Below, in pieces: positions 6 to 64,000 of a DNA stretch of 64,000 nucleotides (position 1 is its first letter; each line of letters begins with the position of its first letter). The translations under genes and the position numbers were made by a program. The DNA comes from Eledone cirrhosa. Its lineage: Eukaryota. The stretch covers positions 320,168,001-320,232,000 of the forward strand of contig OZ024740.1 in NCBI GenBank assembly GCA_964016885.1, written 5' to 3'. The notes beneath the pieces are model-generated. The model was not told the origin of the DNA. It ran no database searches and worked only from the letters and a program-made list of their open reading frames with translations.

Positions 6-3000
6 CTACAGGCGCATGATCAGAGTAGGCCCACTCACGCGGGCCATTCTCGCCACATTCACCCACCTTTCAGTAAATGTACTGGGGGGCAGCACTTCTC
101 TCTCCACCCTCACCTTCCTTTCCAAGTGAAACTTGAAGAAGTTGATGAGGGATTGGCCGAAGAGAAAAGTGTCTGTCTTCAGTCCTTTCAACCTGGTCCA
201 CCATGCAACCTCTTTCGCTACTGCCACCAGGCAGAGGAAAATTGCCTGCCCTTCCTGACCAAAAGAAGGCGGCGGGTCAATCTTCACTATGGACTCGGAC
301 GATAGCCGGATCCGTTCTACACGCGACAATAGCTGTTCGACATAACCCCACAAGTCAGCAATGCACGGACACTGGACGAGTGCGTGCAGAACGGTTTCGT
401 CGCTCTGCGCGCATCTCGGGCAGGTTCGTCTGACAGCACTTCCGTGCCTGTAGAGTTTATCCCGAACCGGCAGCGCCCCCCGGTAGCACTGCCAAGCGAG
501 GGATTTCTGGAAGTTATCCATCGTCCCCGGCTCGAAAGTCCTCCGGAACATACTGGTCAGTTCTACTTCGTTGACGCCCAGAGCCTCTCCTAGTACGTCA
601 TCGCACTTGCCCTCCACTAATCCTCTATAGAAATCTTGAGTGGAAGTTCCACTGACCGCATTGCCCACCTTGCAGAGTGCAGTGAGCGCCTGGCAACATT
701 CCAGATGCCAGTCGCCCAGTCTCGGTCTCTTCTTGACCCAGGACTGCAGCTCAGTCAAAGAGATGAGCTGCGGAAAGGCCCGTCTAACAAACGGCGACCA
801 CACCTGTTCACCGTTTAGGCAAAATATCTGGAGATGTCGCAGCCTCAGCGCATGTCTGCGCATCATTAGCCACGGCATGCCCAGCCCTCCACGAAGAGGG
901 TGCTGGCAGCAGATGGACCGCCTCACCAACGGGACCCGTCCCCTCCACAAAAATTTGAAAAGGAGCCGTTCCAAATTGGCGAGGCGTGGACGGGGGCAAG
1001 GCACGACGGTCAGGCGGTAGTAGATGACGGACGCGATGTACGCGTTCGCCACCTCCGCCCGCCCTTTCAGTGATAGCTTTCTCTCAGCCCATTTCTGGGT
1101 GAGGTTGGCTATCCTGCTCGTCACCTCGTCCCAATTCTTATCCACCTGGAGGTCTGGTCCGAACCAAACCCCGAGCAACTTTACCGGTCCGTCTGTCCAG
1201 CGCCCAACGACGCTGTTGGACGGCATGGACTTTCCTCTCCAGGTGCCGAGCTGCAAGCCCACCGACTTTTCCGGGTTAAGTTTTGCTCCCGTCAACCTTT
1301 CATATTCCTCCAAATGGGTGCGGATCACCTCGATTTCCGAGGTGTCCGACACCATCACGGTGATGTCGTCCGCATAAGCGGACGCAGCCTTTCTACGTCC
1401 CGGTTCGAGCGGGATGCCCTGCAACAACTCCAGCTTCCGCAGTAGAGGCTCAAGAGTCAATACGTACAGAAGTGAGGAGAGAGGGCACCCTTGACGGACC
1501 GATCGAGAGATCTGAAACGGTTCCGAGAGGTGGCCATTAACTTTGACCACCGAGCGGATGCCGCTGTACATTGCAGCGATCCAGCTTCTGAAGACGGGGC
1601 CGCAGCCAGCCGCCTCGAGGACAGCCTCCAAGTACCGATGGTCGACCCTATCGAATGCTTTCGATTGATCTAAATTGATCAGAGCCCCACCGAAGCCAGG
1701 TTTGCACCCAACCCTCTCTATGATGTATCGCATGAGGTGGAGGTTGTCGTGTATGGACCTGGTCGGGATTGCGCAAGTTTGCGCCTCCCCAACCAAATCT
1801 TTGACGACAAGCGCCAACCTTTTCGCTAACACCTTGGCCAAAATCTTAAACTCTGTGTTGAGCAGGGTTATGGGCCTGAAATTATCTAGTGTGTCCCTCT
1901 TGTTCTCGTCTTTCCTTATCAGCGTCACTACGCCACGGCTCACAGAACTGGGAATGCTCCCGTTCTGCTGCCAGTTGCAGTAGAGCGCTTCGAGGAGATC
2001 GGAGAACAAGTCTGGCATATTTACGTAAAGCTCGTAGGGCAGACCATCCAAACCGGGTGACTTGCGACTCGAGCAGCCGACAAGGGCGTCCTGAATTTCG
2101 GCTGATGTTATCGGCTCTTCGCAGCGCTCAGCGTCGGCCGTCGAGAGGCGTGGCAAGCCGTCGAGGTAGGGACTGAAGTCCGCCGCCGTCTCCGACTCAC
2201 CCATCCTCCCGAACAATCGAGCAAAGTGCTGGCGAAAGGCCTCACACATCTGCTTGGAATCGCTCAGTTCGTGTCCATCTCGATCCGTCAAAGACCGAAT
2301 TGTGGTTTTATTTCCACGCTGCGTCTCTGCAAAGCGAGCCCATCGGGCAGCTTTGGTTCCCTCGTTCCTCAGAGCACGCGCCTTAGCTCTGACAATGCAA
2401 CCTTCGTGTTTCGCATTGAAGAAATGGTCTAGTGCCATTCTCGCCGCTAGCACGTCTGTTGCAATGCCACTACAAATAGCCTCGTCTAACTTAGCTATCA
2501 GCCCCTCCTCCTTTCTATTTTTCTCTATTGCTACTTCTTTGCTAAATCCTATCGAGGTTGCTCTAATCTCTCTTTTGAGTGCCCCCCACCACCTGTTGTT
2601 GACAACCCCCCCTGTCAACTTTTTCTTAACTAAGTTGTTGACCCGGTCCCTGTAAGCTTTACGTGCCGGAAACGACATGTTTAGCTTCCAGTAGCTAGGT
2701 CCTAACCTACGTGTCTTATCTAGGTCGACCATACAGATCACAAGCTTGTGATCTGAATAGGCAACCGTTTTAAAATGTGGACATCCTACACTATTTCTAT
2801 CTCTTTTCCTAATGAAAATCCTATCTATGTACGATCTAGATGACCCTATGCGATTGGTCCAGGTCCATACTGGCGCATTAGGGAAATCTAGTCGGTACCT
2901 GTCAGACAGTTGAAACTGGCTGATCAGGTACTTGAGGCTTTTGCACCCCCCGCTCCTATCAGATACTCCCACACAATCCCAGCGTGCTTCTAAGATGCCA

Positions 3001-3425
3001 TTCCAATCCCCTATTAACAGTAAAGGGCGAGACGTAAGCAGAAAGTTTTCCAGGCGCCTAAAGAAGTCCGGCCGACCGGCCCCAGTAGGGGCGTAGACGG
3101 CCACCAGTCTAAAGGCACCACCTTCGCTATTGCTCACGTCCAGGACCACCAACTTTCCGTCAGGATCCCGGAAGATTGACCTTACCTCGAGATCCAGACA
3201 TTTCCTAAACAGCACAGCCACTCCACCTCCCATTCCCGGCCGACTAACAGATGCAAAGATCTGATAATCGTCGAAAATCGGCGCCAGTGCGCGTGTGTCG
3301 GAAATTCTGGTCTCGCTGATGGCAATTACATCCATTCCTAGTGACCTGAGGTCGTTGAGCATGTGACCTTGCTTCCAGGGCGACCCCAGGCCACGAACAT
3401 TTAAACTTCCTACTCTTATGGCCAT
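6..3425 (-). CDS. ORF2: APE endonuclease + reverse transcriptase + C-terminal Cys/His zinc finger (1139 aa)
   Basis: APE motifs LNVRG, ETR, VYAP, GDWN, YIDRIF, SDH; RT motifs KSPGLDG, NFRPITLLN, DQSKAFD, RQGCPLS, YADD; CPRC..HALVQC; uninterrupted. Confidence 0.95.
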   Translation of the reverse strand: MAIRVGSLNVRGLGSPWKQGHMLNDLRSLGMDVIAISETRISDTRALAPIFDDYQIFASVSRPGMGGGVAVLFRKCLDLEVRSIFRDPDGKLVVLDVSNSEGGAFRLVAVYAPTGAGRPDFFRRLENFLLTSRPLLLIGDWNGILEARWDCVGVSDRSGGCKSLKYLISQFQLSDRYRLDFPNAPVWTWTNRIGSSRSYIDRIFIRKRDRNSVGCPHFKTVAYSDHKLVICMVDLDKTRRLGPSYWKLNMSFPARKAYRDRVNNLVKKKLTGGVVNNRWWGALKREIRATSIGFSKEVAIEKNRKEEGLIAKLDEAICSGIATDVLAARMALDHFFNAKHEGCIVRAKARALRNEGTKAARWARFAETQRGNKTTIRSLTDRDGHELSDSKQMCEAFRQHFARLFGRMGESETAADFSPYLDGLPRLSTADAERCEEPITSAEIQDALVGCSSRKSPGLDGLPYELYVNMPDLFSDLLEALYCNWQQNGSIPSSVSRGVVTLIRKDENKRDTLDNFRPITLLNTEFKILAKVLAKRLALVVKDLVGEAQTCAIPTRSIHDNLHLMRYIIERVGCKPGFGGALINLDQSKAFDRVDHRYLEAVLEAAGCGPVFRSWIAAMYSGIRSVVKVNGHLSEPFQISRSVRQGCPLSSLLYVLTLEPLLRKLELLQGIPLEPGRRKAASAYADDITVMVSDTSEIEVIRTHLEEYERLTGAKLNPEKSVGLQLGTWRGKSMPSNSVVGRWTDGPVKLLGVWFGPDLQVDKNWDEVTSRIANLTQKWAERKLSLKGRAEVANAYIASVIYYRLTVVPCPRPRLANLERLLFKFLWRGRVPLVRRSICCQHPLRGGLGMPWLMMRRHALRLRHLQIFCLNGEQVWSPFVRRAFPQLISLTELQSWVKKRPRLGDWHLECCQALTALCKVGNAVSGTSTQDFYRGLVEGKCDDVLGEALGVNEVELTSMFRRTFEPGTMDNFQKSLAWQCYRGALPVRDKLYRHGSAVRRTCPRCAQSDETVLHALVQCPCIADLWGYVEQLLSRVERIRLSSESIVKIDPPPSFGQEGQAIFLCLVAVAKEVAWWTRLKGLKTDTFLFGQSLINFFKFHLERKVRVEREVLPPSTFTERWVNVARMARVSGPTLIMRL

Positions 3426-3454
3426 GCTGGCAGGATGAATGGGAGAGGAAAGGT

Positions 3455-5365
3455 TTACTTACCTTCCGGGGTCTTGTGAAGGTCGGGTGGTTCGACCTCC
3501 ATGGTTTGTGGGGTTTCTTTTGGGAACCCCTTTAATAGTCTTGACGTGGGTTTTACGTTCGGGGTTCCCACATCCCGAGGAAAGCTCTTTCGAATTTCTT
3601 TGTATGAAGCGAGCGACATTCGCATCAGAAGCAAATTATCTGGTACGCGAAATGTGCTCGCTTCAAATGTTTCCCCGTCTTTTTCGATGTTTGTGCTTCG
3701 TGCTACATGGGCCATCAATTCCTTGTTGGCCCTTCTGGCAAGCACGAAGTTTTTAATGTTTTGTTGCTCAGGTTTTATTTGTTCGTGTGATTGTGGTGGT
3801 GATAGCTTTGTTAGTGTTGTTTCTATTGTGTCTGCGTTTGTTGTGGGTGGGGTGTCTGTAGTTTCTGATGTTTGTGTGTCTATTTGTTCTTGTGTCTGTT
3901 TAGCTTGTTTGCGTTTGGGGGATTTTGGTGGTTGTGTTGGTGATGCTGTGGGGAAAATGTTTGTGTGGGTGGTGTGTGTATTTTTTTTTGTGGGGGTGTT
4001 TGTGCTTTGTGGATTTCTTTTTTTTTTGTGTTTTGTTTTTTGTATTTTGGGGGACTTTGGTTTTCCCTCATCTTCACTGCTGGAGGATGAGGGGTCTGTG
4101 GCTGTGAGCGTGTTTGTGTCTGAGTGAGTGTTTATGTTCTTGTTCGTGTGTGTATTTTGGGGGGGAGGGGGAATGGGAGAGCTTTCCTCGTTTCCCCCCT
4201 GGGTGTGCAATTTTGGTGGTTCCATTGTTGACGGTGTTGCTGGTGGTCCTTGTCCCGGCGTCGCCAGCAGTGGAATCTTTCGACCCCTTGCGCTTTTCGG
4301 CAGTTGAGGGCAGAAGGCTCGCAAGTGTGTCGTTTCCCCACAAAGGAAACAATGCGGCCTTTTGCCCTCAGTCATTATATGCAACACCCTCCCGTTTTGG
4401 AGGCGGATGTGGTCCGGGATTGTTTTTACGTTTTCGGGTCTGATTTGGAGCAGTATCTCCAGATCAACCCCGGACCAGTCGTCCCTGGCAGTTCTCGTTG
4501 CCTCTACCGGGACTGTATCCGTTCCTTCCACGATTACGCAACCCAGGAGCCACCACATATCAAGTCCTGGTGGAATCCTGGGAATGCGCACACGTGCTAT
4601 TCGTTTTCCCATGTGGGAGGGGTACATTATGACCTTGCTGGTTTTGCAAGGGGTCATTGAATGCTTCACAGCGAGGGCTTCAGACTTGAACAGCACCGAA
4701 ACGGTGCCGTATTGCCTGCCCCTCTCTATGAAGTCTGTGTCCTCTCTGATGTATTTCAGTGCGGCTTCTATGTCAGCTTGGGCGATTATCGCTGCCCTCT
4801 TTGTCTCTACTGAGATGCATCTGAAATGCACCGTTCTTTTTTCCACTGCCTCAATGGCTTCTGCCGGGACAGTTAAGTTTGCCCAGGTCTGCTCTTGATT
4901 TATGATTTTCCAGGCCTGGGCCAACTTTTCCTCTCTGTTGGTTAAGTCGATGCTGTAGCATGGTCTCCTTTTAGCCGCTGCCACAGCAGCGAAAGTGTTC
5001 TTGTTGGTGTTGTCACTGTTGTTGTTCTTGTTGGTGTTGCTGCTGCTATTGCTGTTGTTGTTCTCCCCTGTGTCGTGGTTACCTTCTGTGCTGTTGGCCT
5101 TGTTGGTGCTGCTGCTGTCGCTACTATTCCTCTCTGTGCTGTTCGTTTTGTTGGTGCTCTCGCTATTACCACCTTCTGCGCTGTTCGGCTTGTTGGTGTT
5201 GGTGTTGTCGCTGTTACCACCTTCCGCGCCGCTCGGCCCGTTGGTGCTGGCACTGTCGCTGCTCACATTCGTGCTGGTGGCGCTCCTCGCCTCACCTCTC
5301 CTCTCAACGCTCAAGTCGCCGTTGCACGACAGCAGACCCGCCTCTAGGGGGCGTGGCTCCGCCAT
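3455..5365 (-). CDS. ORF1 gag-like nucleic-acid-binding protein (636 aa)
   Basis: CFLCGETTHLRAFC CCHC knuckle; N/S/T- and K/P/T-rich low-complexity tracts; lies upstream of ORF2. Confidence 0.9.
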   Translation of the reverse strand: MAEPRPLEAGLLSCNGDLSVERRGEARSATSTNVSSDSASTNGPSGAEGGNSDNTNTNKPNSAEGGNSESTNKTNSTERNSSDSSSTNKANSTEGNHDTGENNNSNSSSNTNKNNNSDNTNKNTFAAVAAAKRRPCYSIDLTNREEKLAQAWKIINQEQTWANLTVPAEAIEAVEKRTVHFRCISVETKRAAIIAQADIEAALKYIREDTDFIERGRQYGTVSVLFKSEALAVKHSMTPCKTSKVIMYPSHMGKRIARVRIPRIPPGLDMWWLLGCVIVEGTDTVPVEATRTARDDWSGVDLEILLQIRPENVKTIPDHIRLQNGRVLHIMTEGKRPHCFLCGETTHLRAFCPQLPKSARGRKIPLLATPGQGPPATPSTMEPPKLHTQGGNEESSPIPPPPQNTHTNKNINTHSDTNTLTATDPSSSSSEDEGKPKSPKIQKTKHKKKRNPQSTNTPTKKNTHTTHTNIFPTASPTQPPKSPKRKQAKQTQEQIDTQTSETTDTPPTTNADTIETTLTKLSPPQSHEQIKPEQQNIKNFVLARRANKELMAHVARSTNIEKDGETFEASTFRVPDNLLLMRMSLASYKEIRKSFPRDVGTPNVKPTSRLLKGFPKETPQTMEVEPPDLHKTPEGK

Positions 5366-5577
5366 GTTTTTTTGAGAAAAAAATTATTATTTTTTTTTTC
5401 AAAATAAAGTTCAAATATTTGGGCCAAAAGGCCCAAATATTATGAGTTATTCCTTCACAGGATACAAATTAATGTCTTATAATGCTTCAGCGGTACAAAA
5501 AATAAACAATTCTCTACAATTAATCCTCAAAAATTGCTTACTCACGGAGCTTCAAAAAACGTACATCCACTTTCGTC

Positions 5578-5601
5578 AATAATAATAATAACAACAATAA
5601 T
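5578..5601. repeat. (AAT)n/(AAC) microsatellite joining the head of Tx1 copy A to the tail of copy B
   Basis: aataataataataacaacaataat. Confidence 0.9.
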
Positions 5602-5851: not shown

Positions 5852-8800
5852 TTACAGATATATACTCAGAGTAGGCCCATTCACTCGGGCCATTCTTGCT
5901 TCTCTCACCCATCTTTCAACAAAATGCTGGGAAGAGAGCACTTCCCTCTCTACTCTGATTTTCCTTTTCAAATGAAATTTGAAAAAGTTAATCAGGGCAT
6001 CACCGAAGAGGTAAGTGCTCGTCTTCAGCCCTTTCAAACGTATCCACCATACTATCTCTTTCGCCATGGCCACCAGACAGATAAAAACTGCCTGCCCTTC
6101 CCGGCTAAAGGAAGAGGGCGGGGCAATCCTCACGATGAACTCAGCTGATAGCTGGATCCGTCCTACACGTGACAGCAGGTGTTCGACATAAACCCACAAG
6201 TCAGCAATGCTCGGACACTGGACGAGTGCGTGCAGGACGGTTTCGTCGCCCTGCGCGCATCTCCGACATGCTCGGCTGACGGCACCTCCATGCCTGTAGA
6301 GTTTATCCCGAACTGGCAAACTCCTCGGTAGCACTGCCAGGCCAGGGATTTCTGGAAGTTGTCCATAGGCCCCGGCCCGAAAGTCCTTCCGAAGATATTG
6401 GCTAGTTGATTTTCGTCGACGCCTAGAATTTCTCCAAGTACGTCGTCGCTCTTCCCCTCCACTAATCCTATATAGAACGCCAAGGTGGAGTTTCCACCGA
6501 TCACATTGCCCGATTGGTCGAGGGCTGTGAGCGCCTGAAGACATTCCAGTCTCCAAGCGCTCCCTCTCGGTCTTCGCTTGACCCAGGACTGCAGCTCCGT
6601 CAAGGAGACGAGCTGGGGAAAGACGTGTCTAGCAAACGGCGTCCACACTTGATCACCGTCGAGGAAGAGGTGGAGATGTCGTAGCCTGAGCGCATGTCTG
6701 CGCATCATCAGCCACGGCATGCCCAGCCCTCTACGTAGCGGGTGTTGACAGCAGATGGACCGCCTGACCATCGGAGCGCGTCCCTTCCACAAAAAGCGAA
6801 AGAGAAAACGCTCCAGCGCAGTCAGGCGGGGCTTAGGACAAGGTACGATGGTCAGGCGGTAATAGATGACGGACGCGATGTACGCGTTAGCCACCTCCGC
6901 TCGACCTTTCAGGGATAGCTTCCTCTCCACCCATTTCTGGGTGAGAGAAGCCACCCTGCTCGTCACCTCGTCCCAGTTTTTAACCGTCTGGAGGTCCGGA
7001 CCGAACCAGACCCCGAGCAATTTAACCGGTCCGTCCAGCGCCCGACGACGCTGTTGGACGGCATGGACCTGCCTCTCCAGGTGCCGAGCTGCAGGCTTAC
7101 TGACTTTTCCTGGTTGATCATTGCTCCTGTCACCGCTTCGTATTCTCTTAGTGTAGTGCCGATCGCCTCGATGTGTTTGGCGTTCGACACCACTACGGTG
7201 ACATCGTCCGCATATGCTGACACGGATCTTCCGCATCCTAGTTCACGCGGGACCCCCCTCAACGTCTCCAGTTTGTGCAGTAATGGCTCGAGAGTCAATA
7301 CGTACAAGAGGGACGAGAGGTGACATCCCTGGCGGACCGAACGCATGATGTTGAACGGTTCCGAAAGGTGACCGTTCACTCTCACCACAGAGCAGATGTC
7401 GCTGTGCATGGCAGCGATCCAGCCTCTGAAGACGGGCCCAAAGCCAGCTGCTCTCAGGACTGCCGCTAGGTAACGATGGTCGACCCTATCGAAAGCTTTC
7501 GACTGATCTAAATTGATCAAGGACCCACCCGTGCCAGGTTCCCTAGCTACCCTCTCTACGATGTATCGCATGAGGTGGATGGATCTGTCGGGAATGGTGC
7601 ATGTCTGCGCCTCTCCCACCAGACCACCAACGACAAGCGCCAACCTCTTTGCTAGCATCTTGGCCAAAATTTTGAACACTGTGTTTAGCCGCTTCTCGGC
7701 TCACAGAGCTGGAAATTCTCCCGTTCTGTTGCCAGTTGCAGTAGACGTCCGCCAAGAGGTCTCCGAACAAGTCTGGCATTTGTACGTAAAGTTCATAGGG
7801 CAGACCATCCAAACCAGGCGACTTACCCCTTGTGCAGCCAGTCATTGCCTCCCGTACTTCAGCGGCTGTTATCGGCTTTTTGCAACACTCCGCCTCAGTG
7901 GGCGAGAGCCGCGGCAGTCCGTCGAGGTAGACACTAAAGTCCATCCCTCGATCCGGCCCGCCGCTGCCCCCGAACAGTTGAGCGAAGTGTCGCTGAAATG
8001 CTTCACACATTTGCCCGGGATCGAGTAGCATGCGCCCGTCGTGGTCCACCAAAGACCGAATCGTGGCTTTGTTGCCACTACGCGCCTCCGCCACTCGGGC
8101 CCATTGAACGGCTTTCCTCCCCTCGTATCTGAGAGCACGCACCCTATCTCTGACAACGCAGTCTTCGTGCTTTGCATTGAAGAATTGGTCAAGAGCCAAT
8201 TTCGCCGCAAGTACGTCGGTCGCGATGCCTTTGCTAAGCGCCTCGTCAATTTTCTAACTAATTCTACCTCTGCTCTATTTTTCTCTATTGCTAAAGCCTT
8301 ACTAAACCTAATGGACTCTATTCTAATTGCTCTTTTCAGAGCAAACCACCACTTGTTGTTGACGATGGCCCCCGTCAACGCCCGCATAACTAGTTCGCTA
8401 ATCCGGTCTCTGTAGGCCTTGCGCGCTGGTAAGGACGCGTTTAGCTTCCAGTAGCCGGGTCCTCGTCTATGAAGCCTATCTAAGTCAAGCCCACAGATCA
8501 CGAATTTGTGGTCCGTGTAGCTGACTATCTTGAATTGTGGACAGCCAATACTAGACCTATGTATTTCCCTACAAAATACTCTATCTATATATGATCTGGA
8601 TGACCCTATGCGATTTGTCCAAGTCCACATTGGCACATTCAGGAAATCCAATCGGTACCTGTCAGACAGTTCAAAACGCCTGAGCAGGTTGGTGAGGCTT
8701 TTGCACCCTCCTCCCCTATCCGCTGATCCCACACAGTCCCAGCGTGCATATAAGATCCCGTTCCAGTCGCCCACTAACACTAAAGAGCGGGACGTTCCAA

Positions 8801-9189
8801 GAAAGGTCTCCAGACGCCGGAAGAAATCAGGCCGCCCTGCTCCTGTCGGGGCATAGACGGCCACTAGCCTGAAAGCTTGCACGTCTCCGCTGGTCACGTC
8901 CAGCACTACCAACTTACCTTCTGGGTCCAGGAAGATGGCCCGTATGGCGAGATCCAAACCTCTCCGAAAAAGCACAGCAACTCCTCCCCCCCGATCCCGG
9001 ACGGCTGGGAGATGCGTACACATCGTAGCCGCCGAAGATCGGTGCGAAGGCCCGTACTTCGGAGATTCTGGTCTCGCTGATGGCCACTACATCTATGTTT
9101 AGTGACCTGAGGTCATTGAGCAAGTGGCCCTGCTTCCATGACGACCCCAAGCCACGCGCATTTATGCTGCCTATTCTGAGTGAGGTCAT
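5852..9189 (-). pseudogene. Disrupted Tx1 ORF2 (APE-RT-zf) of copy B
   Basis: Consecutive ORF fragments collinear with copy A ORF2 (GDWN, YTDH, YADD, CRRC..HALVQC). Confidence 0.9.
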
Positions 9190-9875
9190 GTTGAAATGGA
9201 GTGGAAAAGATGGGAAAGACCACTTACCTTACTTCTCGTAGAGGAAGGATGGTTTCTCCATCCCTTTTCACTTGATCGTCTGGTGAAGGAACCGTTGAAT
9301 CGTCCCTTCGGCTGGGGTCGTCGGTGAGTATATCCGAATATACTCTCCGGTTGAGTGTCCCTCTTAGGTCTCTGAAATCACCAACTGCGTTGGGGAATTT
9401 CCTTTTAATGTTTGTGTATTGCTTCTGTGCTATTCGTACCAGTCTTATGTTCGTTGGTGTTTTGATTGGTGCTGGTATTATGTAGTCGTGCTGTGAAATG
9501 TCTGTGTATTCAATTATGTAAGTCATTAGTTTCTTGTTGTGTGTATTTATTGCTGTGCATTTGTTTTTCTGGGGGTGCGGTGTGGTTCTGATATTTTCTT
9601 GTTGTTGCAGGGTGTATGTGTTTTGTTGTGTTTGCGATGTTGGTGTTTGTGGTGGTGGTGTTGAAGGTGTTGTTGTTGTTGTTGGCGGTGGGGTTGCGCC
9701 GGTGGTGATGGTGGTGCTAGTGTGGGTGGTGATGGTGTTGCTGCTGTAAGTCTCTTTGCAGTAGCCTTTACCCTTTTTTCATTTCTTTCCTCCCTTTTCG
9801 AAGCCACGCGCATTTATGCTGCCTATTCTGAGTGAGGTAATGTTGAAATGGAGTGGAAAAGATGGGAAAGACCAC

Positions 9876-11482
9876 TTACCTTACTTCTCGTAGAGGAAGG
9901 GCGGTTTCTCCATCCTTTTCACTGCTTGTGGCCTCCTCAGGAAGGATGTCCTTATAAATCCTCCTGGAGAGTGTTTGTAGGAAGTCTCCGATGTCTTTGA
10001 GGAATTTTTGTTTTAGTGTCGTGTACGTTTTCTGTGTGATGCGAGTGATTTGTATATGTGGCGGTGGTGTGAACTTTTGGGTTGTTGTGTAGTCTTTTTC
10101 TGTGATGCTGGTGTTGTGGTGGATGTAGTGTAATAATTGGTTGTTGTTCAAATTTAATGCTGTGTAGTGTGTATGGTTTTGGTTGTTTTGTTTGCGTTTG
10201 TTGTGGGTTTGTTTCTGTTTCGCTTTTTGGTGACTTTTGTGGTGTAGGTGATGGTGGTGTTGGGGTTAATGATGGTGATGGTGTTAGTGTTTGTGGTGAT
10301 GGGGTTGGTGATGCTGGTGTGGATGGTGGCATATCTGTCCTAACTTTTTTGTTTGATAATTTATTTGTTTCCCTCTGTATTTTGTTTTTGGAGGGGGAAG
10401 GAAGAGAATTTTTTCTTTTTGGGTTTCTTTTTTTCTTTTTTCCTGATACCGTTTCCCACTCCTCGTCGTCACAATCTGTCTCCAGTTGTGATAGACCGGG
10501 GAGTGGAAAATCCTCCACAGGCGTTAGTTTTGGTTGTGGCGTGGTGGATGGTGTAGGCGCTGGTGCTAGTTCTGAAGCGTTGGGTGGTGGTGGTGTTGGT
10601 TTTGCTACTGTTGCTGGGGTTGTTGCTGTTACAGTTGCTTCTGTTGTTGCTGCTACAGTTGTTGGTGCCATCTCTGCTGCTGGTGGTTTTGATGGTTGAG
10701 TCACTGGGGTGGGTAGGAGAGGTGGCCTCAACCTTTTAGCCTGAGGGCAGAAAGCCCTTAGGTGGGTTCCTTCACCACAAACGACCCACCTAGGCCTTCT
10801 GCCCTCGACAATTACGGTGAGGTGGCTGCCGTCAGTGAGGATCTCCTCAATGCTTTTTTGGTCCGCTTGGATCAGGAGTTCCATCCCAGATCCGGACCAA
10901 TTCTCCTGCTTTTCTTTCGCTATTTCGATTATCTTGGTGTTGGCTTCGATGCTGGCGAGGACGGCAGCTATTAGCCAGGGAATTTCGATGGCCGGTGGAA
11001 CGTGGGTGACCCTGATCTTTACGAGTCTCTGGCCACAATAGCTTGGGACGAGTGTGAAGTCGTCACTTCTTAATGGGGCCATGGAGTGTTCTCTAGCCTC
11101 CTGTGGTGTTTCAAAGAACACGTCCACGGTTCCATACTTCTGCCCACGTCTGATGTGGGGTTTTTTTGCCCACACATGTACCAAAGCTTTTTGGATTTGG
11201 GACTCGGATGCCCGTTCCACTCGGCGCGATTTTATATTAATTGTTCGATAAGACACGCCGATGCTCCATTTTATTAGGTGGGGGGGGGGTGAGGCTAACC
11301 CTGAACCCATCTTTAACAACTGCAGTCATTGGTAATGGCGGGAAATGAATGTCTGCCTGAGACAAATTTAAAATATTGCTACTGCTTATATTTTTATTGT
11401 TGGCAAACGTAGTAATATTTACAATGGTGGTGTCGGTGTGAGGTTTTAGTTTGTGAGAAAGGAGTGACTCTGAGTCAGCCAT
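9876..11482 (-). pseudogene. Frameshifted Tx1 ORF1 of copy B
   Basis: GRRPRWVVCGEGTHLRAFC (degenerate knuckle); RRGQKYGTVDV motif shared with A and C. Confidence 0.85.
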
Positions 11483-11920: not shown

Positions 11921-11939
11921 AAATAATAATAATAATAAT

Positions 11940-14900
11940 GGTTTCTTTATTGGCCACAAGGGCTGACATCAAGAAAAACATTACAGACGGCACAGGGCGG
12001 CACAGGGCGGTACAGGACGGTACAGGACGGTACGATGTGGGTTTTGTGCGTGTAAAGATTTTTATTATTTATATTATATAAGAAAAGAAAAAAAAGACAT
12101 AGAAACTTATATATAAACAATAAAAATGAAAATTGAAACAATGAAACATTCCCCAATAGGGGGGAAACCTCCGAGGGTTACTCGTGGCGAAAACCACACA
12201 AAAGACCACGGCCACCCTAACCACCAGGGCAAGCGCCCTCTCTCACTTTCCCACTCCTCAGTCTACAGGCGTATATTCAGAGCGGACCAGACTCGCCACT
12301 TTTACCCACCTTTCAACAAACTTACTAGAAGACAGCACTTGCGTCTCCACCCTAATTTTCCTCTTCAAGTGAAACTTGAAACAGTTAATCAGGGATTAGC
12401 CGGAGAGGAAAGTGTCCGTCTTCAACCCTTTCAATCCTGTCCACCACGCAATCTCTTTCGCCATGGCCACCAGGCAAATGAAAACTGCCTGCCCTTCCTC
12501 CTCTTTAAAGGAGGATGGCGGGGCTATCTGCACAATGAACTCAGTCGATAACCGGATCCGTCCTACACACGACAGCAGCTGTTCGACATAGCTCCACAAG
12601 TCAGCAATCCTCGGACACTTAACGAGTGCGTGCAGGACGGTTACGTCGCCCTGCGTGCATCTCGAACAGGCTCGGCTGACAGCACCTCCGTGCCTGTGGA
12701 GCTTATCCCGAACCGGCAACGCTCCCTGGTAACATTGCCAGGTCAGGGATTTCTGGAAGTTGTCCATAGGCCCCGGTCTGAAAGTTCTCTTGAAGAGAGC
12801 GAACAGCTGATCGTCTTCGTCGCTCTTTCCCTCCACTAGCCCTCTATAGAACGCCGAAGCGGATGTTCTACCGATACTAGTGCCCAGCCGGTAGAGGGCG
12901 GTGAGCGCTTGGAGACATTCCAGCTTCCAAGCGCTATCCCTCGGTCTTTTCCTGATCCAGGACTGCAGCTCCGTCAAGAAGACGAGCTGGGGAAAAGCGC
13001 TTCTGGCAAACGGCGACCACACCTGTTCACCGTCAAGGAAGCACCAGAGATGTCGCAGCCTCAGCGCATGTTTGCGCATCATCAGCCACGGCATGCCTAG
13101 TCCTCCACGCAACGGGTGTTGACAGCAAATGGATCGTCTGACCATGGGAGCACGTCCCTTCAACAAAAAGCGGAAGAGAAGGCGCTCCATTTTGGTCAGA
13201 GTTGGGCGGGGGGAAAGGTACGATGGTCAGGCGGTAGCAGATGACGGACGCTATGTACGCATTCGCCACCTCCCCCCGACCTTTCAGAGACAGCCTCCTC
13301 TCGGCCCATTTCTGGGTGAGAGAGGCCAGCCTGCTTGTCACCTCGCTCAAGTTTTTCTCCATCTGGAGGTCCGGACCGAACCAGACCACGAGCAATTTAA
13401 CCGGTTCTTCCGTCCAGCGCCCCACGACGCTGTCGGACGGCATGGACTTGCCTATCCAGGTGCCGAGTTGCAAGCCCACCGACTTTTCCTGGTTTATCTT
13501 TGCTCCTGTCACCGCTTCGTATTCCTTGAGAGCGGTGCCGAGCATCTGGACGTGTTTGGTGCTCGACACCACCACGGTGACGTCGTCGGTGTAAGCTGAC
13601 ACGGATCTCCCGCATCCCAGTTTGCTTTGGACCCCCCCCCCACTCATCGTCTCCAATTTGTGTAGTAACAGCTCTAGGGCCAATACGTACAAGAGGGACG
13701 AGAGGGCGCAACCCTGGCGGACCGAGCGCATGATGCTGAAAGGCTGCGACAGGTGACCATTCACCCTCACAATCGAGCAGATGTCGCTGTGCATCGGAGC
13801 GATCCAGCCCCTAAAAACGGGCTCGAAGCCGGCCGCCTCGTGGACCGCAGCATGGTCGACCCTATCAAAATCTTTAGATTGATCCAAGTTGATCAGGGCC
13901 CCACCCGTGCCAGGTTCCTTAACCACCCTATCTATGATGTATCACATGAGATGGAGGTTATCGTGGATGGATCTGTCCAGGATCGCGCATGTCTGCACCT
14001 CTCCCACCAGATCACCGACGACAAGCACCAATCTCTTTGCTAACACCTTGGCCAAAATCTTAAACTCTGCGTTTAGCAGAGTTATGTGCCTGAAGTTATA
14101 ACGTCCTCCTTGTTCGGGTCTTTTCTCAGCAGCGCCACCGCTTCCCGGCTCACAAAACTGGGAGTGCTCCCGTTCTGCTGCCAGTTGCAGTAGACATCTG
14201 CCAAGAGGTCGCCGAACTAGTCTGGCATATAGCTCGTAGAGCAGACCATCCAAACCTGGCGATTTACCCCTCGTGCAGTCAAACATCGCGCCCCGTATTT
14301 CACCTGCTGTTATCGGCTTTTCGCAGCACTGTGCTGCGGTCGTCGAGAGCCGCGGCAGTCCGTCGAAGTATGCACCGAAGTCCATACTCCGATCTGGCCC
14401 ACCGCCGCACCCGAACAATTGAGCAAAGTGCTGTTGAAAAGCCGCACACATCTGCTCGTGTTTGAGCAACATGCGCCTATTTCGATCAGGCAAAGACCGA
14501 ATTGTGGACTTGTTACCACGTCGTGCCTTCACCACCCGGGCCCATTGAACGGCTTTCGTCCCCTCGTGTCTTAGAGCACGCGCTCTAGCTGACAACGCAG
14601 CCTTCATCCGGACAACCTACACTAGCCTTATCTGTTTCCCTACAGAATACGCTATCTAAATACGATCTGGAAGACCCGATGCGGTTTGCCCATGTCCACA
14701 TTGGCACATTCGGATAATCCAGTCTATACCTGTCAGACAGTTCAAAACCTCTGAGCAGGTTGTTGAGGCTTTTACACCCTCCTGTCCTGTCTACTAGCCC
14801 CACATAATCCCAGCGTGCATCTAAGATACCGTTCCAGTCGCCCACTAACACTAAAGAGCGGGACGTTCCAAGAAAGGTCTCTAGACGTCTGAAGAAATCT

Positions 14901-17462: not shown

Positions 17463-17493
17463 AATAATAATAATAATAATAATAATATATATT

Positions 17494-47800: not shown

Positions 47801-50451
47801 CTTGTGGTCTGAATAGCCCACCATGAGCATTTCTGGACAACTTAAAAAGTCCCTATCCTTAATTCTAACTAAGAACCTATCTAGGTACGATCTAGATTGA
47901 CCACTGTTATTTGACCAGGTCCAGGTTGGTACAGTCGGAAAATCTAGTCGGTATCTATCGGCCAGGTCGAATCGGCCGATTAACCCCTTAAGGCTATTAC
48001 ACCCTCCTCTATCGGGACATGCCCCTACATAGTCCCAACGTGCATCTAGGATACCATTCCAGTCCCCCACTAAAAGCAAGGAGCGGGACGTCCCTAGAAA
48101 AGTCTCCAGACGATGGAAGAAGTCCGACCGCATTGCCCCAAAAGGGGCGTATACGGCGACAAGCCTAAAAGCTTCGCCTTCACCATTGCCAAGGTCCAGA
48201 ACCACGAGTCGACCCTCCGGGTCCAAGTGTACCGTCTGTGTAGCGAGACCCAGATGTTTTTGCAGCAGAACGACAACCCCACCCCCACCTCCAGGCTGAC
48301 ATAGAGATGCGTGCATCTCAAAGTCATCAAAGGTGGGGGTTAGCTGTCGCATGCTGCTGATCCGGGCCTCGCAAATAACCATCACATTTACACATTGTGA
48401 CCTGAGGTCACTTAGAAGTTTAGCTTGCTTCCAAGGTGAGCCCAGGCCACGCGCATTTAGACAACCTACTCTTAAGACAGCCATGTTGGTGGCAAAGAAA
48501 GAGGCACTTACCTCTCTGCGTCCCGGGTTTCGGGTCGCTCAGTTTCCATGGGGCTGGTGGAGGGGTTGATGGGTGGGGTGGTGGTTTGTGGTGGTGTGGG
48601 GGTATTAGTGTGTGGAGGGGTTGGGATCTTTGGAGTTGTGTGGGTGTTTGAGGAGGGGAGGGGAAAACCTTTCAGGAGTACGCGGTTGAGTGGCCTGGTG
48701 CAGGGTGGGCCCACGTCCTCAGGGTAAATGTCTTTCAAAGTTTTGAAAATCTCAAGTGGGATTTTCACCATTTTCAGGTTAGGGAGCCCCATTGCCGTTA
48801 CGAAATTCGGCCCTTCGGTTTGTATCGAAGGGTTGGTTTCTATTTTTAAAGTTAGGTTTTCATTGTTTTTGTTTATGTATGTGTAGAGTTTTTGTGTTGT
48901 TGTGTTTGTTTTTGCTTGTTGTTGTTGAGTGAGTTTGCGTTTTATTGTCTGTGTTGTGTTGTCAGGTGGGGTTATTTTTGTTTGTGTGGTGTGTGTACGT
49001 TTTTTTCTTTTCACTTTTTGGAAGGGAGCCCCCTCGTCTTCCGACGATATGAGCTCCTCTTCCGTATTGGAGGGGAGGGGTATATCTCCGGGTTGTGTAT
49101 GAACTGTTTTTGTATTTGTGTTCTGTGGGGTGGGGCTGGGTGGGACCGTGTTTTGGGTTGTTTTCTTGAGCTGTTGTTGATGTTGTTGTTGTTGTGGTGG
49201 TGGTGGTGGTGTTGTTGGTTTTTGTTGTCGTTCTGGTGGTGATGGTAGTGTATTTTGTTGTTTTTGTGATGGTGGTGCTGGTTGTTTTTGTTGTTGTTGT
49301 GGTGTTTGTAGCAGTGTTTTTTTTTGTTGTTAGTAGAGGGCAGGCCGTCCTCAGGTGACCTCTGCCAGCGCAGTGGTAACATGAGGGTCTCCTGCCTTCC
49401 ACTGTGATATTTATGAAGCTTCGCCCATCCAGTAGCACTCGGTCGGGTATTCCGGAGAGTCTCTCAGGTGTCATCTGTAAGAGAACCTCCAGACTTTTCC
49501 CCCCCCCCGAACAGTCCACTGGTGGACTCCCCTGCTGAAATGAGTATGTCCTTATCTAGGTCGGTAAATCCTGTTAGGACGGACCAGATGTTAATTTCTG
49601 GTGTAGGGCTCCACATTCTTATCCTTTGTGTTCTTCTTCCTTTATATGTGGGGAAGAAGGTGTATTGTGGTGACACTATAGGTGCCACCGAATATTTCTG
49701 AGCCAACATTTCGTCCTTCATTCGGACCATAATGCTGGCATACAGCTTTCCTTTTTGAATAAAGAGTATGTCCTTTTTAATGTCTTTCAGAACCAGCTCA
49801 ATTTGACTTTCGGTCAATTGCGCTGGCTTTCTCGTTTCGTTGGTTATGGTTCTGTAGGTTACGGTATTCTTGTAAATCTGTTGACGCACTTCTTCTGGGG
49901 AGTTGATCGTAAAAGAACCATCCTCCCCAAAAGATACGTATTTTCTAGCCTCTAGCAAATTTTCCTTAGCGTTCGTGATGTCAATGGGTTTGTATTCCGT
50001 GGCTTTCCTGAGTGTTTGGGCAAAAGAAATTTTGTTGTCTGTGTTTGTTGTTGTAATGTTGTTGGTTTCCTTATTTGTGGTGTTATTTTTTTCTTGAAAA
50101 TTAATTTTTTCATTTGAATTAAAATTCTTTTTTTTTTTATTGGAGAGGAGGGGCTGTTCAACAGTTTGAACTGTTGTTCCCTCTTTCCCGCTTGTTTTTT
50201 TGGTCGGCGTGGCGTTCGCTTCCAATATGGCGATATCGTTTTCGACGATAACGTTATCAACGATATCGATAAACATTTCTGAAATATTTATTTTTTCACC
50301 CCAAAAGGGGTGAAAATATATTTACCCTGCGTCTATAGTCCCAGACTAGGGGTTAGAGTTAATGATACAAAAGAATTCAAAAGAATTCACTCACAAATAT
50401 AGCAGGTAAAATTCCAAATCACAGAGCGATATGAAACACGTCTACTATCCT
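44826..50451 (-). mobile_element. Tx1 copy D, full length, inserted in (CAGA)n
   Basis: ORF1 50276-48508 in three frames (CYHCAGRGHLRTAC); ORF2 48484-45049 with one frameshift near 47777; (CAGA)n at ~44783-44825 and 50452-50481. Confidence 0.93.
45049..48484 (-). pseudogene. Tx1 ORF2 of copy D, single 1-bp frameshift
   Basis: 235-aa APE piece plus 895-aa RT-zf piece; catalytic motifs intact. Confidence 0.9.
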
Positions 50452-57643: not shown

Positions 57644-57654
57644 ATATATATATA

Positions 57655-58835: not shown

Positions 58836-59535
58836 GATTTCTTTATTAGCCACAAGGGCGCAACAAGAAAGGGGACAATACAAAGACATGCCGGGGATTT
58901 TACATACAGTCGTGTAAAAAATATAAAAACAAACAATTTCAACAATCGAAATCCCCAATAGGGGGGAGGCGCTACAAATGGGTTGTTTAATACCCCGTCG
59001 ATAGAACAACCCTCAACTCGAGGAGCGTGTTGTGCAAGTTCTCCTTTCTTCCTTTTGCTCTCTTCCTCAACCTACAGGCTTATAAACAGAGAAGGCCCAA
59101 TCACTCGGGCCATTTTCGCTTCATTCACCCACCTTTCAGTAAATTTACTGGGGTGCAGTGCCTCTCTCTCCACCCTGATTCTCCTTCTAAAGTGATACTT
59201 AAAGAAGGGAATCAATTGTTGTCCGGAGAGAAAGGCATCTGTCCTCAGTCCTCTCAACCTCGTCCACCATATAACTTCTTTCACCATAGCCACCGTACAG
59301 AGGAAAACCGCCTCTCTTTCGTTTTTGAAAGAGTCTGGCGGTTTGATCCTTACTATGGACTCGGCAGTCAACTGTATTTGTCCCATACGCGACAGCAGTT
59401 GTTCTGCATAGTTCCACAGGTCGCTTACGCCCGGGCAGTGTACAATTGCGTGCAGAACTGTTTCAATGTCCTGCGCACATCTTGGACACGTCCTCTTGGA
59501 AGGATCCCTGCCAGGGCGTCCGTGCCTGTAGATCT
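58836..59535 (-). mobile_element. 5'-truncated Tx1 copy F with target-site duplication in (GATA)n
   Basis: ORF2 C-terminus (59072-59386); TGCGAGATAGATAGATAGA at 58819-58837 and 59536-59554. Confidence 0.9.
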
Positions 59536-59600
59536 TGCGAGATAGATAGATAGAAAGACAGACAGGCAGATAGCTAGCTAGCTAGATAGATAGATAGATA

Positions 59601-62600
59601 TATTTCTTTATTTACCATAAAGGTATAAAAAGAAGGGACAAATACAAAGGGGGAGTTTACATACAATGGAGTAAAAAGGGTATAACATGAAAATAATCGA
59701 AAATAACCTCAAAAGGAGGGGACGTGATGGGGGTTGCACACACCCCCGAAAAAGTGTGCAATCCTTTGCCCGGGGAGCACATGGAGAAGGTGCTCCCCTC
59801 TCCTTTACTTCTTTACCTACAGGATGGTATACAGAGAAGGCCCATTTACACGAGCCATTCTCGCCACTATCACCCACCTTTCATAAAACTGCCTGTGGCC
59901 AAGCACCTCTCTCTCCATTCTTATCCTTCTTCCGAAGTGATATCGGAAGAAGTAGACCAGACTATGGCCAGAGAGGAAGTCGCCTGACCTCAAACCTTTC
60001 AATCGTGTCCACCAAACAACCTCTTTCAACATGGATATTACGCACAGAAAAACCGCCTTTGCTTCCTTTGTGAAGAGGGGAGGCGGTTTGATTGTCATCA
60101 CGGACTCGGCGGTCAATTGAATCGGCGCCACCCGCGACAGCAGTCGTTCGGCGTAGCCCCACAGATCAGCCACGCCCGGACATTGCACCAATGCGTGCGC
60201 AACGGTTTCTTCGTGACGCACGCATCTAGGGCAAATCTTTTTTGAGGGATCCCTGCCCGGGCGCCCGTGTCTGTAGAGCCTCTCTCGAACGGGTAGAGCC
60301 CCTAGGTAGCACTGCCAGGCCAGTGACTTCTGGAAGTTGTCCATTGGTCCTGGGCCGAAAGTCCTACCGAACAGGCTGGCCAGTTCGTCTTCCTCCATGT
60401 CCAGCGACTCTCCAAGGGTGTCATCGCCCCTGCTAGCCACCAGCCCTCTATAGAATGATGAGGTGGATTCTCCACCGATGGCCTGGCCCGCTTGCCAGAG
60501 AGCCCTGAGCGCCTGAGCACACTCAGTGTGCCAGTCTCCCAGTTTTCCGGATCTTTGCTTGACCCAGGACTGTAGCTCGGTGAGCGAGACGAGTCTCGGA
60601 AAGGCTCGTTTCACGAACGGAGCCCACACCGGTTGACGAGTGAGGAATACCTGTAGGTGCCGTAGCCTTAATGCGTGCCTACGCATCATCAACCACGGCA
60701 TCCCCAGCCCTCCTTTCGAAGGTTGTTGGCAGCAGATGGATCTTCTCACCATAGGAGGGCGCTTCTTCCAAAGAAATTGGAAGAGCATGCGTTCCATGGT
60801 GGTGAGTGTTTCCTTAGGGCAAGGCACGACAGTCAGGCGGTAGTAAGTGACGGACTCTATGTAATTGTTCGCCACCTCCGCCCGGCCTTTTAGGGACAGC
60901 TTACACTTGGCCCATTTCTGGGTTAGTGCAAACACCTTGTTCGTAACCTCGTTCCAGTTCTTTTCCACCTGGAGGTCCGGTCCAAACCAGACCCCAAGCA
61001 ACTTTACCGCGCCCTCCGTCCAGTGTCCGACGACACCGTCGGGAGGCATCGGTCTGCCTCTCCACGTTCCGAGTTGCAGCCGGATGGATTTTTCCCGGTT
61101 CAGTTTCGCTCCTGACAACCTTTCGTAATCCTCCAGTAAGGTACCGATCGCCTCGATCTCCGAGTCGGTCGATACCATTACTGTTACGTCATCGGCGTAG
61201 GCCGACACCGCTTTGCTCAATCCTGGTTCCAGGGGGATACCCTGCAACAACTCCAACTTCCTCAGTAAAGGCTCGAGAGTCAATACGTACAGAAGGGAGG
61301 AGAGAGGGCACACTGTCGAATGGATCGTGTGATTTCGAACGGCTTCGAAAGGTAGCCGTTCACCTTGATACTAGAACAGATGTGGTTGCTATGTAAGGCA
61401 GTGATCCAGCCTCTGAAAACAGGACCGAACCCAGCCGCCGCTAGCACCGCATCCAGGTAACCATGGTCGACCCTATCGAAGGCCTTAGACTGATCCAAGT
61501 TGATCAGGGCCCCACCGAAGCCGGGTTTGTTGCCAACCCTCTCTATGATGTATCGCATGAGGTGGAGGTTATCGTGAATGGATCTAGATGGGATAGCACA
61601 TGTCTGCGCATCTCCCACCAGGCCACTCACGACAAGCGCCAACCTCTTTGCTAACACCTTGGCCAAAATCTTTAACTCTGTGTTTAGCAGGGTTATGGGC
61701 CGAAAATTATTTATACTATCTCCCTTGTTCTCGTCTTTCCTCACCAGCGTAACTACGCCCTTGGCTACAGAACAAGGAATTCTCCCGTTCTGCTGCCAAT
61801 TGCAGTAGACCGCTTCGAGGAGTTCGGAGAAGAAGACCGGCATTGCTAAATAAAGTTCGTAAGGTATACCATCGAGACCTGGAGATTTGCGTCTGCTGCA
61901 TTGGCTCAGCGCATCTCCGATCTCATCAGCCGAGATTGGTCCCTCGCTGGACTCTGCCTCTTCGCTCGAGAGACGCGGTAGGCCGTCGAGGTATGGACCG
62001 AAATCCACGTCCCCGCCCGGACCCTCGCCTCCCCCGAACAATCGGGCAAAGTGCCTTTGAAAGGCCTCGCATATCTGCTTAGGCTCCCGGATCACCCGTC
62101 CATCTTCGTCTTGCAACGACCGGATGGTGGATCGATTTCCACTCTTAGCTTCTGTCACGCGGGCCCAGCCAACGGCTTTGGCCCCCTCATTACCTAGAGC
62201 ACGTATTTTACTTCGAATGACGCAGCCTTCGTGCTTTGCATCGAAAAACTGGTTCAAGGCCGTCCTCGATGCCAGCACTTTGGCCACATCTTCGCTCTTG
62301 ATTGCCTCTTCTAATTTACCTGTTAATTCTTTCTCGTTTCTATTCCTATCGGCAGCTAACATCTTGCTATAACTTATTGATTCTGTTTTAATCTCTCTTT
62401 TGAGAGATGCCCACCATCGGTTGTTGACGATTGCACCCGTCAACCTCTCCTTAACTAATCTGCTAATCCGGTTTCTGTAAGTCTCTTTTGCCGGTAAAGA
62501 CAAATTAAGTTTCCAGTAACCGGGACCCTGTTTATGTGTTTTCTCGAGATTGACTACGCAGGTCACTAATTTGTGATCCGTGTAGCCAATCGTGCGCATT

Positions 62601-64000
62601 TCTGGACAGCTTAATATGTCCCTATCCTTACTTCTAACTAAGAATCTATCTAAGTACGATCTAGATTGACCACTGTGGTTTCTCCAAGTCCAGGTAGGCA
62701 CAGTTGGAAAATCTAGTCGATATCTATCGACCAAGTTAAAACGGTCAAGTAACCCCTTGAGGCTGTTACACCCCCCTCTATTAGGACATGCTCCTGCATA
62801 GTCCCAACGTGCATCTAGGATGTCATTCCAATCCCCCGCTAGAAGCAGGGAACGCGACGTTCCCAGAAAAGTCTCTAAACGCTGGAAGAAGTCGGGCCGT
62901 TCAGCTCCGAAAGGGGAGTAGACGGCGACCAGTCTTAAGGCCGCACCTTCACTACTATCAACGTCTAGCACCAACAAACGACCCTCCGGGTCCGAGTGCA
63001 CAACCTGTACGGCAAGACCCAGGTGTTTTTGCAGCAGTACGACAACCCCACCCCCACCTCCAGGTTGACAGAGAGATGCATGCACCTCAAAGTCATCGAA
63101 GGTAGGGGCCAGCTGCCGCACGACGCTGATCCGAGTCTCACAGATAACCATTACATTTATACCACATGACCTGAGGTCATTTAGAAGCTTTGCTTGCTTC
63201 CAAGTTGAGCCCAGGCCACGTGCATTTAAACATCCTACTCTTAACACATCCATGTGGGCGGCAGAGCCAAAGGAGAGTGTAGAGACCTACCTTTCCGCTT
63301 CCCGGGGTTCGGGTCGCACGACTTTCATGGTGTCGGGGGTGTTGGGTGAAGGGGTGTCTTGTGGTGGTGTGGGGTCGTCAGTGTGTGGTGGGGTTGGGGT
63401 GTTTGGAGTTGTGTTGGGGAGGGGAAGGGGGGGGGGGCTTTTTAGTAGGACGCGGTTTATGGGTTTGACAGAGGGTGGTCCTACGTCCTCCTTAAAATCC
63501 TTTTTTAGTTTTTGGTAGAGGTTCATTGGGATCTTTATTAATTTTAAATGTGGGTAGTTTTCTGAAGAAACAAAGTTTACCCCTTCGGTTTGTACCGAAG
63601 GATTATTGTATATGAGTTCAAATAATTTATTATTGTTTCTGTTGATGTAAGAATAGTGTAATGTCTTTTTTTCGGATGGTGTGAGTGTTTCGAAGAGGGG
63701 AGGGGCAGGTTTGGTTTTGTTTGTTGCTGGAGGGGTGTTTTCTGTTTTGTTGGATTGTGTTGAGATTTGGGTGGGGGTTGTTTGGCCTTGTGTGTTTTGC
63801 ACATGTTTTCTTTTTTTCCTTTTAATCTGTCTGAAGGACTCCGTTTCTTCCTCCGAATTCGTTGGGTTATCTTCAGTGTTGGGGGGAAGAGGTATGTTTG
63901 CTGGTAATGTTTCCGTGTTGGTTTTCTTTGTGGGGGAGATGGATGTCACTATGTTAGACTGTGTTGTGTGTTGTGTCTGCGGTGGTTGTGTTGTCTTATT
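59601..64000 (-). mobile_element. Tx1 copy E in (GATA)n; 5' part continues beyond the window
   Basis: ORF2 63253-59817 with one frameshift near 61313; ORF1 C-terminus 63287-64000. Confidence 0.93.
59817..63253 (-). pseudogene. Tx1 ORF2 of copy E, single frameshift at the RQGCPLS motif
   Basis: 657-aa and 498-aa collinear pieces. Confidence 0.9.

Follow-up and report, generated by a model that had tools for sequence, protein, structure and literature searches.

A conserved splice-donor motif and a predicted long-range helix flank ORF2 in an L1-group LINE family of Eledone cirrhosa: a candidate U1-based switch

How a long interspersed nuclear element (LINE) makes many copies of its open reading frame 1 (ORF1) protein for each ORF2 protein from a bicistronic RNA, and how it keeps that RNA unspliced, are to our knowledge open questions. 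Both are raised by a stretch of 64,000 nucleotides (nt) from the 3.0-Gb genome of Eledone cirrhosa (GenBank assembly GCA_964016885.1, contig OZ024740.1, positions 320,168,001 to 320,232,000; hereafter the window), which carries five two-ORF LINEs (A to E) on the minus strand and two 3' remnants (F and a decayed one). An earlier note on this DNA had proposed that all of ORF2 is an intron, with a splice donor on the ORF1 stop and an acceptor on the ORF2 stop. The first half of that proposal holds, in that a conserved U1-type donor does lie at the end of ORF1, but an intron reaching to the ORF2 stop is supported by neither the acceptor nor the retrocopy tests described below; a further feature, a predicted helix that spans ORF2, enters the argument beside the donor.

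Elements A to E are L1-group retrotransposons that lack long terminal repeats (non-LTR elements), with a separate ORF1 and an ORF2 that in intact element A encodes an N-terminal APE endonuclease, a reverse transcriptase (RT) and a C-terminal zinc finger (Pfam PF03372, PF00078 and PF13966), including the motifs GDWN, SDH, YADD and CCHC. Its nearest solved structure is human L1 ORF2p (E 6.7e-57), with R2 at E 2.6e-22. The ORF1 of A occupies its own upstream frame and has one CCHC knuckle, at residue 339; a Pfam scan of it gave no match and a homologue search no relatives, and its structural look-alikes in the ESM Atlas, zf-CCHC or ZCCHC3-like RNA-binding domains, serve as a lead only. The Tx1 label, taken over from the earlier note, may be apt. 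Element A is very young (its 40 best genome matches are about 100% identical to it, and 30 retrieved loci 99.8–100%), and a degenerate ORF2-start pattern matched 8,850 genomic copies, among which the lineages named here A, A2, A3, B, B2, C, G, F2, E, D, J, H and I share 64–98% identity in ORF2 DNA (A3 standing outside that alignment).

All six ORF1 ends in the window carry a donor, as had been claimed, with the sequence AG/GTAAGT (the slash marks the exon–intron boundary) in A to D and AG/GTAGGT in E. The two reading phases described for it were also recovered, phase 1 (G-K-stop) in A and C and phase 2 (R-stop) in B, D and E; with genomic copies representing B to E, phase 1 (A, A2, C, F2) and phase 2, found in two separate clades (B and G; E, D, H, I and J), are scattered over the ORF2 tree and thus imply at least two phase shifts. 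The G/GT form was present in 27 of the first 30 genomic loci matched by the ORF2-start pattern, one locus having a changed −1 base and two having lost the site. Lineages differ in carrying AAG, GAG, ACG or CAG before GTAAGT, or AAG/GTAGGT, AGG/GTGAGT or CAG/GTAATT; ACG/GTAAGT and the last three all lie near the donor consensus. Under rough splice weights, 11 of 12 representatives had no GT that scored above the donor (J being scored without a poly(A) limit), and among nine lineages, A2 and the partial G excluded, its nine positions required five parsimony changes in all, whereas 192 four-fold sites in ORF2 averaged 1.5 changes each (P=0.012), which bears out the expectation that it would be conserved above background. 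Exact copies in the genome number 337 for A, 1,427 for D/H/I and 2,028 for B.

Because of this conservation relative to four-fold sites, its persistence in two phases and its top GT score, we infer that the donor is under nucleotide-level selection. The bolder statement, that protein constraint does not explain the motif, calls for caution: conservation in two phases above four-fold sites speaks for it, but one of two further occurrences of AGGTAAGT in the window lies within B ORF2, where the codons P-E-G-K give the same 8-mer, and protein codons alone can therefore yield a donor motif; the other occurrence is at 6009-6016 on the opposite strand. Element B has two ORF1 ends (9189-9900), a B-type ORF1 whose spacer has lost its ATG being followed by a B2-type ORF1 tail with an intact spacer, probably through a nested truncated insertion or a template switch.

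Comparison of the lineages demonstrates, at the level of sequence, a lineage-matched complementarity with compensatory changes between the pyrimidine spacer that runs from the donor to the ORF2 ATG and the start of the 3' untranslated region (UTR). In all 12 lineages examined the spacer can pair with the 45 nt that begin at the ORF2 stop, at predicted energies of −17.7 to −42.0 kcal/mol, and as only 0–18 of 300 arm shuffles were as good as the real duplex, composition alone provides no explanation for the pairing. Same-lineage pairing over 12 lineages was reached by none of 100,000 permutations, and nine control windows around the stop showed no lineage preference (3,382–19,681 of 20,000 permutations); taken separately, it ranked first of 720 arrangements among A, A2, A3, B2, C and G, and 37th of 720 among F2, E, D, J, H and I. 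Consensus folding identified 3, 3 and 5 compensatory pairs in three sub-alignments, all short and gap-rich, and in A2 and A3 copies retrieved afterwards both arms are altered in matching fashion. For the compensatory-pair folding and the permutation tests A2 was represented by locus L137; the ORF2 alignment, splice scoring and first duplex test used L090 (window's contig, 18927442-18934942), a chimera whose 5' part is of A2 type and whose 3' end comes from B.

The ends of the predicted loop all but coincide with the AUG and stop of ORF2. For B2, the minimum-energy fold of 3.9 kb contains the helix, with 35 of 45 nt paired, and pairs the AUG context with the stop region. Elsewhere, the G of the TAG and the next bases pair with the CC ahead of the ATG context, and the TAA stop region of B2 pairs with the A/T-rich end of its spacer; the AG/G context at the ORF2 stop, read earlier as acceptor conservation, is thus accounted for by the co-varying helix. 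The 3' arm is also predicted to pair with intron-side bases of the donor itself, six of them in B and C, five in E and four in F2. A local hairpin at the 3' UTR starts of D and E (45030-45005 and 59790-59770) shares sequence with the 3' arm and might form in competition with the long-range helix.

What such an arrangement might do is a matter for graded judgement. We tentatively favour, at a little short of even confidence, a U1-and-helix switch in which the donor and the co-varying arms flanking ORF2 would set the ratio of ORF1-only to full-length RNA, a proposal built from the sequence comparisons and by analogy with EVD, an Arabidopsis copia element in which a U1 site both splices and blocks premature termination (PMC5580714). 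Firstly, a U1 small nuclear ribonucleoprotein sitting on the donor during ORF2 transcription would guard the nascent RNA from early 3' cleavage, as in EVD. Secondly, with the end of ORF2 transcribed, pairing of the newly made 3' arm with the spacer would leave ORF2 as a loop, a clamp that would cover the donor in B, C, E and F2, such that full-length RNA would stay unspliced and available for retrotransposition. Thirdly, RNAs that failed to form the clamp would either end early or be joined, by splicing, to some weak acceptor close to where ORF2 ends (mostly the TAG, another AG in B). As the donor sits at the last codons of ORF1, an ORF1-only message could be produced without harm to ORF1.

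One must consider that a number of results weigh against this switch. The protein-free donor positions alone give P of about 0.08. The helix is missing from the whole-element minimum-energy fold in four of five elements, 3.9-kb folds being unreliable, and in seven of 12 lineages another window of the element pairs more strongly with the spacer. Covariation is weaker in the D/H/I/J clade, where a lineage's own arm ranks 8th to 11th of 12, and as the lineages are related the permutation values overstate their independence. Nor is donor masking universal, since the arm pairs two or three of the six donor bases in A, D, H, I and J and none in A2, A3 and G. Precisely spliced retrocopies were not found beside 3,792 intact donors of the A, D/H/I and B groups, which caps the amount of spliced RNA open to mobilisation. 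The binding of U1, the formation of the helix, splicing and early termination are each deduced rather than observed.

Closer to the original proposal are two stricter accounts in which ORF2 is itself the intron. That the whole 3.4-kb ORF2 is a switchable intron, with U1 at the ORF1 end, splicing to the ORF2 stop, a near-unchanged ORF1 C-terminus and a donor-hiding helix that would lock a fraction of RNA at full length, seems to us somewhat unlikely. We regard as unlikely the account in which the 3.4 kb between the donor and the ORF2 TAG make up a single dedicated intron, whose removal would yield abundant ORF1-only mRNA still carrying the 3' UTR, the helix serving to bring the sites together. 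The dedicated intron draws its appeal from a donor placed where splicing spares ORF1. The joins read as had been reported for E (R-stop), window C (Q-D-stop) and window D (about 35 extra residues); to these can be added G-W-stop in A, missed in the earlier note, and 71 codons in another D copy. An in-phase stop follows within three codons of the TAG in seven of 11 TAG lineages (A, A2, A3, C, F2, E and H) against three of 22 in the other phases (Fisher P=0.006, if lineages are independent), and between F2 (phase 1) and H (phase 2) a one-base difference after the TAG keeps the stop in phase. These stops represent few independent events, because the lineages are related, and may perhaps reflect descent from one ancestral match with one matched shift (F2 versus H/E); moreover G, D, I and J are without one, and B keeps a stop at the same post-stop place despite having no AG.

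The acceptor speaks against the dedicated intron. ORF2 does end in CTGTAG in A, C, D, E and F, as described, with TGTAG in the decayed remnant and TAA in B, and across the family the stop is TAG in A, A2, A3, C, G, F2, E, D, J, H and I and TAA in B and B2, a difference that amounts to one change on the tree. In a control for the final G, however, 17 of 48 conserved Lys/Glu/Gln codons hold G in at least eight of nine lineages; the G of TAG is therefore kept at the level of a neutral two-fold site and its retention is ordinary. On the same rough weights the stop AG ranks 2, 2, 4, 6, 7, 16, 18, 29 and 34 among 119–314 downstream AGs in nine lineages, its best places being second in E and J and fourth in A, and it is never top. 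Among the groups sampled, the largest is that of the B-type copies, with TAA and no AG at the stop (by eye, 45 among the first 100 listed; their 2,028 exact donors have been given above), and the 3' arm would fall in the second exon, outside the intron. With a TAG that behaves as if neutral, is never the best AG and is replaced by TAA in B-type copies, the conserved acceptor and pyrimidine tract once read at the ORF2 stop find no backing.

Other candidate acceptors were noted in passing. D has a second AG 7 nt upstream of the ORF2 TAG, and B (window 5690 region) and G (locus L083) have a strong pyrimidine-tract CAG about 160-170 nt past the ORF2 stop; joining to this 3' UTR CAG in B would extend ORF1 by about 20 residues, and no such retrocopy was seen in the B pattern search. 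A short intron ending at an AG before the ORF2 ATG was rejected as a general rule, a well-scoring AG being present there in A, F2 and G but not in B, C, D, E, H, I or J. The 5' UTRs of A, C and D contain donor-like GTGAGT/GTAAGC, GTAAGT and GTGAGT at about 5560-5520, 17420-17390 and 50440-50410 respectively (minus strand, approximate), some 30-60 nt from the element starts; combined with the AG that A, F2 and G have ahead of the ORF2 ATG, they might yield a message for ORF2 alone.

Spliced transcripts that had been mobilised would leave retrocopies with ORF1 joined precisely to the 3' UTR, and none was found in the five groups searched with patterns specifying the exon end followed by anything but the spacer: zero beside the 337 intact donors of A, zero beside the 1,427 of D/H/I, and zero in C and E, which come without a denominator. 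Three matches beside the 2,028 of B were discarded as point-mutated or deleted spacers rather than junctions. The patterns would catch TAG joins and two B alternatives; of the other acceptors possible they cover 20-36%, and in D/H/I the AG lying 7 nt upstream of the TAG escapes them. This result, which counts against the dedicated intron, is weaker than it looks, because an ORF1-only RNA needs mobilisation in trans and cis-preference could hide spliced RNA. ORF1-only non-autonomous elements of the HAL1 or HeT-A type are DNA-level deletion elements; with ORF1 and a 3' UTR but no ORF2, they have the form that the proposed splice would give, and an ORF1-only derivative with the predicted join was not found in the pattern searches of this genome.

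Logan contigs of four runs, of unrecorded kind, were inspected on element A (15 of 569 joints viewed) and used neither for nor against splicing. Those of run X4, likewise of unrecorded kind and not used, gave three joints, none from donor to ORF2 stop (six of 38 loose ends viewed), and cross the donor (L031 4431-5006) and the ORF2 stop (1266-1569) unbroken. Their depth was about 191-197 on two 3' ORF1 contigs, 20.5 on a 5' ORF1 contig and 6.5-21 on the listed ORF2 contigs, X1 and X2 being even; as depth cannot rank parts of a gene and the kind of run is unrecorded, these values are kept out of the argument.

It is possible, if distinctly improbable in our estimation, that the clamp acts in translation or assembly, bringing the end of ORF2 and the 3' UTR next to the stop of ORF1 and the AUG of ORF2 so as to control reinitiation, return ribosomes to ORF2 or present the 3' end to new ORF2 protein, with the donor a separate feature or mainly a multi-frame stop signal. 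The closure of the loop almost exactly at the ORF2 AUG and stop, the pairing of AUG context with stop region in B2 and the presence of the helix in lineages whose donor stays uncovered would all fit such a role, which nevertheless leaves unexplained why the exon-side AG/G and the GT at +5/+6 persist in either phase, as well as the donor-complementary segment in the arms of B and C. The least credible account, which we consider very improbable, takes the donor motif to be an inherited by-product of G-K-stop and R-stop codons and the pairing to be pyrimidine–purine composition only, and whilst the P-E-G-K codons of B ORF2, the single ancestor common to all lineages and the stronger-pairing windows elsewhere in the element lend it something, it is at odds with a donor conserved above four-fold sites and across phases and is largely refuted by the permutation test, in which lineage-matched pairing, with its compensatory changes, was confined to the post-stop window.

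Known systems offer partial precedents for the U1-and-helix switch. The arrangement resembles the Ty1/copia shGAG splicing of EVD in having a strong conserved donor at the end of a structural gene, serving in EVD to supply excess structural protein; EVD differs in that it is an LTR element whose Gag and Pol share one frame, its intron has the protease domain at its centre, termination follows that intron and splicing has been demonstrated (PMC5580714), whereas here the elements are two-ORF LINEs in which ORF1 has its own stop, a predicted long-range helix flanks all of ORF2 and splicing is a deduction. Human L1, also an L1-group element with a donor, is described as having a functional, mostly unused donor whose spliced RNAs leave retrocopies (SpIREs; 131 of 6,609, about 2% of full-length copies; PMC5860796); that donor lies in the 5' UTR and its defective products keep ORF2, whereas here its place is the ORF1 stop and the searches recovered no spliced retrocopy. 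The Tx1-clade elements Kibi and Koshi and crocodilian Tx1 likewise have two ORFs, APE and RT, and tandem copies, and they insert in or beside microsatellites, as the present elements may also do; the repeats are (TC)n or (TTC)n there rather than the (ATT)n and (TCTA/TCTG)n found here, and in the accessible text of that report neither a donor nor a clamp is described (PMC4494074). Evasion of HUSH was set aside as the donor's role, since protection there is independent of the 5' splice site (PMC8770142) and leaves the donor unexplained. In the openly accessible literature searched, no LINE was reported to carry a clamp around ORF2 or a donor where ORF1 stops, and the accessible parts of PMC12129022 and PMC13282606 make no mention of either.

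Table. Positions of the LINE features in the window; energies refer to the predicted duplex of spacer and 3' arm.
Feature	Coordinates	Strand	Remarks
A ORF1	3455..5365	-	636 residues, one CCHC knuckle, G-K-stop end
A donor AAG/GTAAGT	3457..3465	-	phase 1; AG/GTAAGT at 3464-3457; 337 exact genomic copies
A pyrimidine spacer up to ORF2 ATG, 5' arm of predicted helix	3423..3459	-	duplex -32.9 kcal/mol
A ORF2	6..3425	-	intact, 1139 residues; APE endonuclease, RT, zinc finger; TAG stop 6-8
A stop and first bases of 3' arm	1..8	-	arm and 3' UTR run past window start (L031 below 1506)
B upstream donor copy, then spacer with mutated ATG	9874..9882	-	AG/GTAAGT at 9881-9874
B donor and spacer, predicted 5' arm	9199..9230	-	AG/GTAAGT at 9229-9222; six intron-side donor bases pair; duplex -36.8 kcal/mol
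B ORF2	5852..9189	-	frameshifted; TAA stop without AG, at 5852
B predicted 3' arm, with donor-complementary segment	5818..5846	-	
C donor (phase 1) and spacer, predicted 5' arm	15262..15301	-	AG/GTAAGT at 15300-15293; duplex -43.2 kcal/mol
C ORF2	12263..15258	-	broken; TAG stop, CTGTAG at 12263
C predicted 3' arm	12228..12264	-	covers donor
D donor (phase 2) and spacer, predicted 5' arm	48487..48514	-	AG/GTAAGT at 48513-48506; duplex -22.1 kcal/mol
D ORF2	45049..48484	-	one frameshift; TAG stop, CTGTAG at 45049
D predicted 3' arm	45025..45050	-	overlaps competing local hairpin
E donor AAG/GTAGGT (phase 2) and spacer, predicted 5' arm	63256..63293	-	AG/GTAGGT at 63292-63285; duplex -29.9 kcal/mol
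E ORF2	59817..63253	-	one frameshift; TAG stop, CTGTAG at 59817
E predicted 3' arm	59785..59818	-	
F, 5'-truncated 3' fragment	59072..59536	-	TAG stop, CTGTAG at 59072; no donor of its own
Decayed ORF2 3' remnant	39817..40448	-	TGTAG at homologous place, 39817; no recognisable 3' UTR after it
Donor-like AGGTAAGT within B ORF2	8912..8919	-	P-E-G-K codons

The family is set among repeats and other retroelements. Element ends are flanked by (ATT)n or (TCTA/TCTG)n, which may be tail or target repeat, and copies of A form head-to-tail arrays with a 5.8-kb period, ten of them at 423365592-423418128 on the window's contig. A distant-protein query of this genome returned 150 rows, in many of which the full 1150-codon ORF2 frame is kept, and all 30 of the 30 loci retrieved from it were A-group copies. 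The ORF2 protein search gave 17 relatives (proteins without DNA), one 71% and fourteen 33-37% identical; two metagenome loci were rejected as relatives, matching over 34 residues only, and one of them (L095) looks like an unrelated bacterial-type gene. Within the window, a second LINE type at 27110-30654 (minus strand), which we take to be RTE-like, has an endonuclease, an RT and C-terminal zinc fingers, and its 3' end is duplicated at 34876-35439 (minus strand). Decayed RT elements lie at 22978-26794 (plus strand), probably of the restriction-like-endonuclease type, and at 18236-18868 (minus strand), which we assume to be CR1-like.

The family offers a defined and mutable control module, comprising a donor, two arms and a candidate acceptor, in thousands of copies and including an intact lineage of very recent origin. 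Should splicing play no part, the co-varying clamp would still be a structural element unreported in the literature searched. If the switchable-intron account were true, a non-LTR element would achieve a retrovirus-like balance of spliced and unspliced RNA through RNA structure; and if the U1-and-helix switch is true, LINEs and copia elements would have converged on U1-based control, to which the long-range ORF2 clamp would add a new layer.

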